Shown here: positions 35,001 through 47,900 of the stretch, piece by piece
Numbering within the stretch: position 1 is the first letter of the stretch
Layout: the number at the start of each line of letters is the position of its first letter
NCBI GenBank assembly: GCA_051294905.1
Contig: CM119372.1
Coordinates: 20,586,001 to 20,650,000 of the forward strand
Source: Botryllus schlosseri
Lineage: Eukaryota
Length of the DNA: 64,000 nucleotides
Direction: 5' to 3'
Notes under the pieces: model-generated
Told to the model about the DNA's origin: nothing
Database searches by the model: none
Seen by the model: only the letters and a program-made list of their open reading frames with translations
Position numbers and translations under genes: made by a program

Positions 35001-36099
35001 GGTCGATCATATGATATTTGGACGACGTTAAAAAATCTAGCAGGCGTGCGGGATCCATCTTGATTTGATATATTTATTGTATCATAAAAACCAAATCCGT
35101 GCGATTGGGGTGTTGGCAAGGCCATATAACTGCCGCACCCCAAACCCCCCAAATGGGGGGGCCGAGCTCGAAGGGGCCCAAAATTATTTCATGAATTAGC
35201 ATAAATTATAGAGTATTTTTTGAAAATTTGTACAACCTTTTCAAAATTTTTTCGCGCTGCGCGCGATTTCAAGTTGCCAAGTTTCTTCATTATTGGGTAC
35301 TTTTCCCCCAAGAAAAAATACGCTAATTTTATAGAAATGGGCATATCAGCGTTGGCCATTACCGCGCCACGACGAACCAAGACGTATAAAGTCTTGGACC
35401 ATGCAATATGCGACTCCAAGAAGTGTGCCAGAACGATCGGCAGCGAGAAAACTTGCCCTTATACTGACCGAAAACTTCGTTATATATACAAATTACACAT
35501 AGGTTTAATTGTCCATAGGTGCCTGAATGACTGGCGCCAAATGTCATGGCAACCTGAACCTTAGAAGACAAATACCATCCCGCAGAAAAAAATTATATGA
35601 CAATGAAGAAATACCAATTTGAAATCGTGTGTACTTTTAGTTTAGTACGTTTGGGCGATTCTATTTTTTGATATAGCAGACAGGAGGTCACGAAATAACA
35701 TCATGTAACGAAGTCATACCAACGGGTACGCCCGCCCGAATATGTTTAATTATTATTTACGGGCTCTAAAGTTTCGAAGACACCTCACTAAGCTATACCG
35801 GTAAATATGAGTAGAGAGGACAAGAAATTTATAGCAATATATATGCAATTCCCGACGTTATTGACCGATTTATCATGAATTATCGAAAATTTTCGCGCAT
35901 AGACTTGGCTCACGAAACGGTACCACTATAACTTCGTGGTAAAAGTGAACAACGTGATGGGGGACGGTTTATCACCAATTGGAAGCCCATGACTCAAGTT
36001 TTTTTGGGGCCCTGACGAAGTGCTGTTTCGCTCCTGTGAACGGGAGTAGTATAGTAGATCGGTCGCGAACTAACGTTTTTTTGCATGGGCTCTTATGGG

Positions 36100-36340
36100 C
36101 GGGGTGGCATGCTAACGCGAAACCGGGGGTGGCATGCTAACGTTTTCGTCTTATGGCGGGGGTGGCATGCTAACGTTTTCGTCTTATGGCGGGGGTGGCA
36201 TGCTAACGTTTTCGTCTTATGGCGGGGGTGACATGCTAACGTTTTCGTCTTATGGGTGCGGTCGCATGATAACGCGAAACTCGTGGTGGCATGCTAATGT
36301 TTTTTGGTATACGTGCGGCGACATGCTAACGACGATAAAT
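36100..36340 (+). repeat. Subterminal 33-bp tandem repeat (ATGCTAACGTTTTCGTCTTATGGCGGGGGTGGC) of element B; mirror at about 47605-47845
   Basis: 3-4 near-perfect units plus degenerate flanking units. Confidence 0.85.
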
Positions 36341-45400: not shown

Positions 45401-47900
45401 CGTGCACATTGTATCTTCGTGATGGTAACGACTTTCAGCGGCTTGGTTTCATGTCGGGAATTATGATTTGGGGGTTCAAAAACAATCAATACTACAAATG
45501 AACAACAATGCAAAACACGTTTAGCAAAGAACAGTGTGGCAAGTACTTTTTCGATATTACGATTGTTGTGTACCAGACACTTCTAGTTGAATTGAATGCA
45601 TCGAACAAACATATCACAATTTACTTTTGTAACGATCAAAGTATGTGAAATGGTGCGAACGGATTAGGTATTATTCAAGCGGCGGTATGTCAATTCACCT
45701 AGTGTGATATCTTGACACCGGGTAATGCGCGAAAGTGTTTCAATTCTCACCGCGGATTATGATGATAAAGTATTGTACCGGTTGTTAATCAGCAAACGAA
45801 ATTGTCGTTTCATCTTTAGTCTTGGGTACTGGAAATATTTTCTGATATCCGCAATACGCAGAGTGATTTTTACCAAGGTGGAGTAATTTTCCTATCAAGA
45901 ACATTTCAGACATACATAGTTTTACAGCTTAATGTGTTAATAACATTGGTACTGAAAAGTTTGTTGCTGTCATAACATTTACCATAACGCCGGGTCTAAT
46001 TAACGCAAATAATTTAATAATAAAGTAATGATCAACTATTACAAATCTCATATGTCAAATCAATGTGTCAATCTTATGTTCACAGCATGATAACTTTGAA
46101 TATAACACCATTGTTCGATTGTAAGAAACGAATTCTCAACTACGTTGGTCAGACTTTCAAATCTCGTATACTCAAACATATTATGTTAATCTCAAGTCGC
46201 CGACACTGAGAAGTAATTACTTTTGTCTTACAAAATATACCGAGTAGTAATTAGTTTGTCTTGCAGAATATACCGCGTAGTAATTCCTCTATCTTACAGA
46301 ATAGTAACGACTTTTCAAGCTGAATAAAAAAAGATGTGTAGGGGTATGAATACAACCAAGCTTGTTATGGATTTTAGGTTTTAGTGATTGTATGGATTCG
46401 TGTATGTTTGGCTGTTTTTCATACTGATACTGTTTGAGTTGGTTGGGTAAGTTACAAACGGATTTACTTGACAATGTTTTCGTGGTTGACTCTTTGAGTA
46501 TGGTAAGATGGTGAGATGTCGAGACGTAATACTATTTCCGTACACTCAATTACAAGGATTAGGGTTGGGTCAGAAAGAAGTGAAAATTTGTCGGTATTCG
46601 AATCACCGGCTACGCCGGTTCTATGGTAAACTAATTACTAAAGTAACACCTTGCGACTGATTACTAGATTTAGCAAACTATTTCGCACTTCAGCGCGCAG
46701 GTCATTCGAAATATAGGGCGCGCGCGTAATCCTCACAACAAGCCGTGTTCGCAAAACGGATGTAGTTAGTGGGTCGCACATATCAAAACGCAAGCGCAAA
46801 CATCTGTTTTTCAAAATCACACAATGTACTGCGGTTTAGTGAATTTCTCGTCGGAAATAAGTGACAATTTGTTGCTATTCAAGTTACCCACACTGATGGT
46901 TCTGATAGTCGGTATTTATTAAATCTTACCAGTGAAATCTAGTTCTGTGACAAACTGATTACTAAAATTTCACCGCGTGAGCGATCGGTATGGCTATGAC
47001 ACCAAGTCGTGAAAGATGGGTATGTCCGAGACATTATCTTGTCAGTGATCGCGGGGTTTTGCAAACTATTTCACACCTTTTTGAATAAGCGTTAACTTCA
47101 CAAAGGATTACGGCTAGAATAGAAATAAGTGACAATTTGTTGGTATTCAAGTCTCGCCGGTGATGTATCTGTTATTCGGCACTTATTACACTTATCATGA
47201 AATTAGAGTGAGAACATAAAGCGTCAAGTTGTTGTTTTCGAATTTTGATGTCGAGGTGATAAATTTACGCATTCAATTACAATTCAACTTCGGTTGTGTA
47301 TTGAGTGATAGATCGATTTGCCGGAAGTGGTATCTTGTGAGCGATCGTAGGATTTTACAAATATTTCACATCTTTTTGAAGTGTTAGTTTGCGAACGCGA
47401 CTATTGTTGATATTCGAATCGACGTCTGTCGCACGCACTGCGTAAATCCTCACAACAAGCCACGTTTCCGTTTGTGCGGTTATTGTTGGTGACTCGTACA
47501 TATTCAACACCACGCGAGAGATACCTGAAAGTACGAATCACGACCGCGCCCATAAGAACACATGGTGAATCACCACAGATCCCGTAAGAATACATGACAG
47601 ACACATTTATCGTCGTTAGCATGTCGCCGCACGTATACCAAAAAACATTAGCATGCCACCACGAGTTTCGCGTTATCATGCGACCGCACCCATAAGACGA
47701 AAACGTTAGCATGTCACCCCCGCCATAAGACGAAAACGTTAGCATGCCACCCCCGCCATAAGACGAAAACGTTAGCATGCCACCCCCGCCATAAGACGAA
47801 AACGTTAGCATGCCACCCCCGGTTTCGCGTTAGCATGCCACCCCGCCCATAAGAGCCCATGCAAAAAAACGTTAGTTCGCGACCGATCTACTATACTACT
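42427..47900 (-). repeat. Right arm of element B
   Basis: Reverse complement of 36045-41518. Confidence 0.95.

Follow-up and report, generated by a model that had tools for sequence, protein, structure and literature searches.

A stretch of 64,000 nucleotides of the Botryllus schlosseri genome (assembly GCA_051294905.1, contig CM119372.1, positions 20,586,001 to 20,650,000 of the forward strand; hereafter the window) carries a giant palindromic insertion, which we named element B, together with a palindromic relative, element A, and a gene-carrying Maverick/Polinton, element C (Table 1). The locus raises the question of how a palindrome of this size keeps its two arms almost identical, and whether A and B stand for stable lineages, as an original prediction made from the letters of the window had proposed. 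Our results indicate that B is a copy of an abundant palindromic family with Maverick ends and one small gene, which likely borrows its polymerase and integrase from a helper, and whose arms are repeatedly equalised, probably during replication. We assign this reading a probability of roughly 70%.

By self-comparison of the window, B was found to consist of two 5,474-bp arms with one mismatch between them and a 908-bp loop, the total insertion measuring about 11.9 kb. The coordinates and the repeated flank bases of the original prediction, including a 6-bp target site duplication, were thereby reproduced. The flanks lie outside the palindrome, and a 5.5-kb inverted match with a single mismatch, set between duplicated flanks, is far beyond chance. 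No open reading frame (ORF) above 160 codons, no Pfam match and no SF1 helicase of the transpoviron type was found in B, and the ORF list, Pfam and a protein comparison with C revealed no frames for a polymerase, integrase, ATPase, protease or capsid protein. Rfam returned no structured RNA in B at E values up to 0.5, and a tRNA search of B returned none. Coding capacity in the arms was also considered and rejected, as their divergence lacks codon periodicity (ratio 1.01), single-base gaps dominate and Pfam gives no match.

A and B are independent insertions, because their 6-bp duplications differ. Their loops are 93.6% identical over ungapped columns. The strong divergence claimed for the middle arms was borne out: about half is unalignable, and the alignable part (37% of the A arm and 47% of the B arm) is about 82% identical. 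Within each element, as had also been claimed, the two arms are nearly identical, differing by 0.015-0.018%; when the two levels were compared, divergence between A and B (~18% where alignable) proved about 1000 times that between arms, and the two are not similar. The subterminal repeats differ as described, with a unit of 33 bp in B and 92 bp in A. A and B are collinear in their inner blocks (B arm 1346-2106, 2249-2343 and 4067-5474) and in the loop, but not in the outer 1.4 kb, where the modules common to both stand in a different order.

We surveyed the genome for the generality of the palindrome with two samples. A search with the B loop gave 1,006 candidates, 40 of which were scored at 92-100%, and the 28 best besides B were fetched with both sides. 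Matching arms (97.7-100%) were present in 26 of these 28 copies (one of them rearranged, and two truncated where a contig ends or a gap begins), and two had unlike arms. The second sample was independent of the loop: one variant of the end motif had 604 matches, of which the first 100 were used; they pair into 39 elements, and about 20 unpaired ends were ignored. Four of the 39 were gene-carrying helpers and two were already known, and the remaining 33 were examined at their centres, where 29 proved to be palindromes and the other four showed arm sequence with deletions or insertions. BLAST found no match above 300 bp to the interior of C in the central 10 kb of any of the 33, and the eight C proteins matched 1 of 76 arms. 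The arm/loop border was the same in all 38 copies selected by the B-like, type-1 loop. Eight of the end-selected copies contained a type-2 loop, which resembles B's loop (~76%) over the gene only and has its own fixed border. Other copies thus keep the palindrome in both samples, and so does the type-2 lineage, whose loop gene has diverged to about 0.9 synonymous substitutions per site (dS); the claim that the architecture persisted over a long time is sustained.

Mavericks are described with an end motif of (AG)n or (AGT)2 and a 6-bp target duplication (PMC8097293). Matching 6-bp duplications flank 32 of the 33 scorable palindromes (38 examined, three of the duplications scored by eye), and A, B and C have the same terminal motif and common terminal modules. 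Multiple dispersed insertions, each with its own duplication, occur as in non-autonomous Mavericks, and by these sequence features the family almost certainly consists of non-autonomous elements with Maverick ends. On visual inspection, a CpG step occupies the centre of about 20 of the 32 target duplications and may reflect a preference of the integrase.

Several end-selected palindromes have a loop that is cut, different or missing. Copy L098 (G000:C2:22073781-22083780) is an essentially loopless, continuous palindrome of 12.4 kb (99.7%), and most of the loop is deleted in L079. Short loops of further types occur in L091 and L095 (341 and 387 bp); in the latter, what remains of the loop gene is its first 31 codons, which are 55% identical. 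Two nested end motifs stand 153 bases apart at both ends of L113/L114 (G000:C1:33469672-33483361), which also carries a mirrored piece of the helper protease-like gene. At G000:C14:15390595-15402194 (L074-L076), two loops lie 9.6 kb apart across a 100-N gap, being either a tandem pair or a scaffolding duplicate.

A record of how the arms stay alike comes from the nearest arm relatives of B. A search with the loop-proximal part of the B arm gave 1,725 candidates, of which 40 were scored and eight fetched; over arm positions 1346-5474, seven of the eight match B at 99.0-99.3%, and the eighth does so only in part. We counted mirrored mutations over 4.1 kb in eight copies of this B-arm family, leaving out L066, which belongs to it only partly. 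Private substitutions stood in both arms in 60 cases and in one arm in 21. Variants shared between family copies stood in both arms of every carrier (15/15), and none of the 21 one-arm variants was shared. Both arms of B have the ~765-bp deletion, which none of the six relatives inspected shares. In L093, whose arms are 99.9% identical, each arm contains a piece of the helper protease-like gene that covers residues 45-172. The outer ends (outer 330 bases), different in each of the seven family members examined, are the same in both arms in six of seven. Since mirrored substitutions, a mirrored deletion and a mirrored captured helper piece cannot arise otherwise, one arm was copied on the other, and there is hardly any doubt that arm-to-arm copying occurs.

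One-arm differences range from 0.015 to 0.7% in the 31 copies with both ends (L011, L027 and L050 set aside). Outside the 41-bp array they are mostly scattered, uniform and private, and large one-sided insertions or deletions remain uncorrected in L005, L013, L050 and L060. These differences behave like a clock running from insertion, and arm correction probably takes place mainly before integration. The arms had been predicted to be reset at each replication. The copying itself is supported by the mirrored private and shared variants, whereas a reset at every replication is not, with 2 of 32 copies having unlike arms; because these two (L011 and L064) lie within intact duplications, obligatory correction is unsupported. 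A further copy, L027, has unlike arms and unlike flanks, and is an ectopic recombinant or a mis-join.

The different parts of B have different relatives. When the first 30 copies were compared along the arm, each differed from all the others, and their block profiles are mosaics. Within the B-arm family, the loops show mutual differences of 0.1-1.3%, as the arms do, but stand 4.2-4.7% away from the loop of B, whose closest loop relatives occur in copies with arms of another kind. The outer module of B, with its 33-bp subterminal repeat, is unlike that of its nearest arm relatives. Inner-arm and loop distances gave a Spearman coefficient of 0.18 in 37 copies, and shared variants of the B-arm family conflict with a single tree. 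By these relationships, B is a loop-swap recombinant, with the arms of one lineage and the loop of another, and modules are exchanged among lineages and with helper ends. As arm, loop and outer-end relationships are incongruent, A and B are draws from a recombining population. The proposal of long-separated subfamilies is not supported by this comparison, the arms being mosaics of swapped modules.

Element C and its relatives are the likely helpers. C begins 0.9 kb from B, with the same end motif as A and B. Pfam identified an integrase with a chromodomain and, by a weak Pox_A32 match, an ATPase. A 432-residue protein has named homologs labelled 'F54H12.2-like', a label that we take to denote the Polinton major capsid protein, and a protease-like frame has a weak PDB hint (E 0.53). 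The polymerase-sized region (56781-60186) is split into several frames in this copy; we presume it to be the polymerase from its position, length and familiar motifs. Many genomic copies have open frames of 1,100-1,300 codons in this region, and 97 genomic matches to the capsid-like protein were scored, of which about 80 span its full length at ≥95%. Twelve helpers were examined, with a 6-bp duplication in 10 of 11. Over 530 bp, identities of up to 96-97% are reached between their ends and palindrome arms. Their terminal repeats (~550-870 bp) differ in length and module make-up from one helper to another, but the two repeats of a single helper are near-identical. Among helpers the capsid-like proteins are 95-100% alike, and the polymerase region forms groups at about 92, 78, 57 and 36%; this divergence, with the variety of terminal repeats, suggests module exchange among helpers too. 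Both the Maverick helper and the loop gene described below had been missed by the original prediction.

C itself has one mismatch in its 712-bp terminal repeats despite the split polymerase region, and contains a 588-bp small palindromic insertion (60572-61159). This and two further small palindromic elements in the window (17326-17917 and 33130-34593) are unrelated to B and resemble foldback elements or miniature inverted-repeat transposable elements (MITEs); those at 17326-17917 and 60572-61159 are about 72% alike. A 100%-identical duplicate of the B right arm, the spacer and C (window 42446-64000) lies 83,353 bases downstream, at G000:C2:20711799 onward (L077, L078). It starts 19 bases from the B loop border, after unrelated sequence, and is either a real duplication begun at the hairpin or a false assembly duplication.

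The loop encodes the family's one small gene. Its frame of 91-93 codons is intact in 40 of 49 type-1 and all 8 type-2 loops. Between the two types the gene has a dS of 0.94 and 0.27 non-synonymous substitutions per site (dN), giving dN/dS 0.29; between B and L088 the differences by codon position are 25/15/41, and the other five frames contain stops. The loop gene is thus under purifying selection between loop types, and the candidate reading of a wholly non-coding element was dropped after this test. Homolog searches returned one near-identical entry in 5.8 billion sequences and one in 1.84 billion representatives, and the protein has no Pfam match at a useful E value and no PDB match; in the same genome there are 1,185 candidates. 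Its structure model was unusable (predicted local distance difference test score, pLDDT, 45). A single-cell RNA run, of which about 3% was read, gave values of 2.7, 16.4 and 9.6 in the bins of 42019-43518 versus 0.5, 0.8 and 1.6 in the other orientation, with orientation set from the minus-strand helper genes and reads pooled over many copies with symmetric arms. This modest signal fits a sense transcript of the loop gene running into the arm behind it. A run search for the element sequence listed no RNA run. No strand-biased deamination was seen in the loop among singleton and shared changes (C>T 39, G>A 52).

A racket-shaped single-stranded intermediate has been proposed for Polintons (PMC4196379), and we propose that the arms are equalised at such a step. 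Protein-primed strand-displacement synthesis from either end would free a single strand, which would fold into a hairpin with a stem of 5.5-7 kb and a loop of 0.9 kb, the 'racket'. Past the loop, the polymerase may change template to the arm displaced earlier, or the 5' arm may serve to refill a resected 3' arm; the second arm would then be a copy of the first, and each change would be doubled or lost. Plain hairpin copying would not equalise the arms, whereas they would become equal through template switching, 3'-arm refilling or repair of mismatches within the stem. We favour fold-back synthesis that proceeds outward from the loop, because correction is usually complete and residual differences lie at the outer ends. 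Strands of different lineages may anneal through shared modules, and the resulting mosaics would be made symmetric by the same step. The helper integrase would then integrate the element with a 6-bp duplication, after which the arms would drift like the two long terminal repeats of a provirus.

Several observations weigh against this reading. We infer helper dependence from shared ends and duplication length, and the elements are known here from chromosomal copies alone. The presumed helper polymerase has no Pfam or PDB match, the family search giving no signal in any control either. Inside intact duplications, the two arms differ in type over about 5.5 kb in L011 and over the outer 0.2-0.3 kb in L064, and the differences in L031 and L064 are clumped outside the array (p ~0.003). 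Changes at CpG account for 3 of 60 mirrored and 1 of 21 one-arm substitutions, and these spectra do not separate copying before integration from copying after it; the mirrored pattern would also result from rare conversion of whole arms in the chromosome. Within type-1 loops, the loop gene is under weak selection (dN/dS 0.50), and singletons are near neutral (44 non-synonymous to 14 synonymous). The gene is also broken in the young copy A, and cut or missing in the palindromes L091, L095, L098, L099 and L107, and is therefore not needed in cis for a copy to exist.

Arm-to-arm gene conversion within the chromosome is the main rival of our reading. Y-chromosome palindromes are kept alike by gene conversion, and here the same process would account for mirrored variants equally well in principle, with mosaics made by ectopic conversion among hundreds of copies and the result copied by transposition; insertions could then not be dated by the identity of their arms. 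L011 agrees with a long conversion of one arm, and L027 shows ectopic recombination or mis-assembly. Conversion, however, would be expected to leave patchy differences, and those observed are uniform and private, at 0.015-0.7%; one-sided insertions and deletions persist, and L011 is heterologous over 5.5 kb. Moreover, each helper has short terminal repeats separated by 14 kb that nearly match one another, while they differ from helper to helper. We therefore consider chromosomal conversion unlikely as the main process. Stable, long-separated clonal subfamilies A and B, each reset at every replication, would agree with the clonal-looking B-arm family (99.0-99.3% over 4.1 kb) and with the two deep loop lineages, but not with the different nearest relatives of B's loop, arms and outer end, the module mosaics, the shared variants in conflict with one tree, or the unlike arms inside intact duplications, and this history seems improbable.

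Two further explanations would deny the family a palindromic lineage of its own, and both appear very improbable. Recurrent one-off snap-back products of a gene-carrying Maverick, as defective copy-back genomes newly formed on each occasion, would agree with the observed arms, which start with helper-type ends and sometimes carry helper pieces. Beyond about 1 kb, however, neither the arms nor the loop match C. Each loop type has a fixed border, and two palindromic lineages have a loop gene that evolved under selection to a dS of about 0.9; among the copies examined, no gene-carrying parent was seen that had the arm and loop sequence. An assembly artefact, from fold-back reads or collapsed repeats, is suggested by the perfect downstream duplicate that starts so close to the loop border. 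Against it stand the different flanks with matching 6-bp duplications in 32 of 33 copies, the graded arm divergence and the presence of element sequence in runs of 10 studies, and a fold-back of the assembly is argued against by the non-palindromic flanks and by the single-base differences and one-sided insertions or deletions resolved between the arms of many copies.

Table 1. Features of the palindromic elements and the neighbouring Maverick, in window positions
Feature	Position	Strand	Remarks
Target site duplication of B, left copy, 6 bp	36039..36044		recurs at 47901..47906
B left arm, 5,474 bp	36045..41518	+	opens with (AGT)2 Maverick-type terminus; non-coding module mosaic
33-bp subterminal tandem repeat, 4.6 copies	36124..36274	+	mirror 47671-47821
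Block common to B arm and terminal repeat of helper C (49127-49260), 89%	36370..36511	+	
Junction of ~765-bp deletion private to B, 10-bp microhomology	37390..37399	+	mirror 46546-46555, so in both arms
Internal 33-bp repeat within A-shared block	37642..37733	+	mirror 46208-46303
Sole arm-to-arm mismatch of B	37741 vs 46204		
41-bp tandem array, ~8 copies	40312..40650	+	common to A and most relatives; mirror 43295-43633
B unique loop, 908 bp, type 1	41519..42426	+	lineage differs from that of B's arms
Loop gene, 91 codons	42045..42320	+	orphan, intact in B
B right arm	42427..47900	-	reverse complement of left arm
Target site duplication of B, right copy, 6 bp	47901..47906		
Element A, family member	544..14656	+	arms 6,596 bp, 1 mismatch; loop 7140-8060, 921 bp; loop gene frameshifted
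Element C, gene-carrying Maverick/Polinton	48793..64000, on to 64377 (377 bases past window)	-	15,585 bp, 712-bp terminal repeats, 6-bp duplication

The lengths of the elements may bear on how they spread. Among the 35 end-paired non-helper elements, 26 lie at 11.8-14.7 kb (median 13.4 kb), three are shorter and six longer, and none is under 6.6 kb; helpers are 14.9-17.2 kb (11 of 12 measured). B, at 76% of the length of C, stands at the low end of the palindromes. Since non-autonomous DNA transposons are mostly below 2 kb (PMC3014272), the lack of short members asks for a reason. One answer, which we put at slightly below even odds, is that doubling an arm of about 6.5 kb keeps the genome at 76-94% of helper length and thereby fit for packaging in the helper capsid. 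For adenovirus vectors, the packaging floor is near 75%. The size range could instead reflect descent from one founder. Somewhat more tentatively, the elements may be natural and heritable satellite genomes of an endogenous Maverick virus: gutless and helper-packaged, with an arm doubled to capsid-filling length and re-symmetrised by fold-back, recombining like viruses and encoding an orphan protein that acts on the helper.

With Mavericks/Polintons the palindromes share the (AGT)2 ends, the 6-bp duplication, the length class and the terminal modules of the genome's own gene-carrying copies (PMC8097293, PMC4196379, PMC6431247, PMC3014272). They differ in having terminal repeats of 5.5-6.9 kb, 92% of the element, and one orphan gene instead of polymerase, integrase, ATPase, protease and capsid genes; the 5,474 bp of B falls outside the 100-1,000 bp given for the terminal repeats of autonomous Mavericks (PMC4196379). 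B is not an internal-deletion derivative of C, the only helper compared, as its interior has no match to C beyond end-proximal pieces; nor are its arms a copy of a parent's end in the snap-back manner, since only the outer ~1 kb resembles the helper examined. Snap-back or copy-back defective viral genomes are likewise palindromic and helper-dependent, with the same viral end at both termini (PMC13506859). They are, however, transient in infected cells, whereas the B family is germline-integrated, abundant and diversified, with its own gene and with arms absent from the helper examined. A symmetric recombinant of adenovirus 12, reported by Deuring et al. in 1981, is said to have been packaged at near-genome length. 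Foldback elements resemble the B family in being non-autonomous, with long modular inverted repeats and internal tandem arrays, and MITEs are short; unlike these, the 35 end-paired B-type elements include no short members, and their ends and duplication length are Maverick-type. Transpovirons are, as the B family may be, linear, helper-dependent parasites of the Polinton orbit with terminal repeats that ride in particles; they differ in measuring about 7 kb, encoding a helicase, having short terminal repeats and depending on mimiviruses (PMC5499653). B functions like a helper-dependent snap-back genome and is classed as a non-autonomous Maverick, not an internal deletion of the helper examined.

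The palindromic outline may already be known from zebrafish. Kapitonov and Jurka (2006) reportedly described non-autonomous Polintons there under names of the type Polinton-1N1/2N1, at least one of them measuring about 11 kb, with some 5 kb in each terminal repeat; they are not known to show copying between arms, exchange of modules, a gene in the loop or a constraint on size. Polinton-1N1 is named in PMC9341505. We found no description of palindromic non-autonomous Mavericks in the literature covered, to which Repbase Reports and subscription journals do not belong; 'non-autonomous' and 'palindrom' are absent from PMC8097293, and 'palindrom' from PMC6431247. What is added here is the count of mirrored mutations, the loop swap of B, the mirrored capture of helper sequence and the unlike-arm exceptions.

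Racket replication and capsid passage of Polintons have long been proposed (PMC4196379), and the debate awaits experimental work (PMC5499653). The mirrored mutations and modules would be hundreds of natural records of the racket step, with the rare uncorrected copies marking its failures, and the clustering of sizes leads to a testable packaging prediction. At about 13 kb each and several hundred copies, the elements could account for at least a percent of the genome, as estimated from the 604 end matches and about 1,000 loop candidates, and surveys based on Maverick genes would miss palindromic elements that lack them. If the satellite reading is true, the family would be a genomic record of the Polinton hairpin intermediate and an indirect sign that animal Mavericks form particles.

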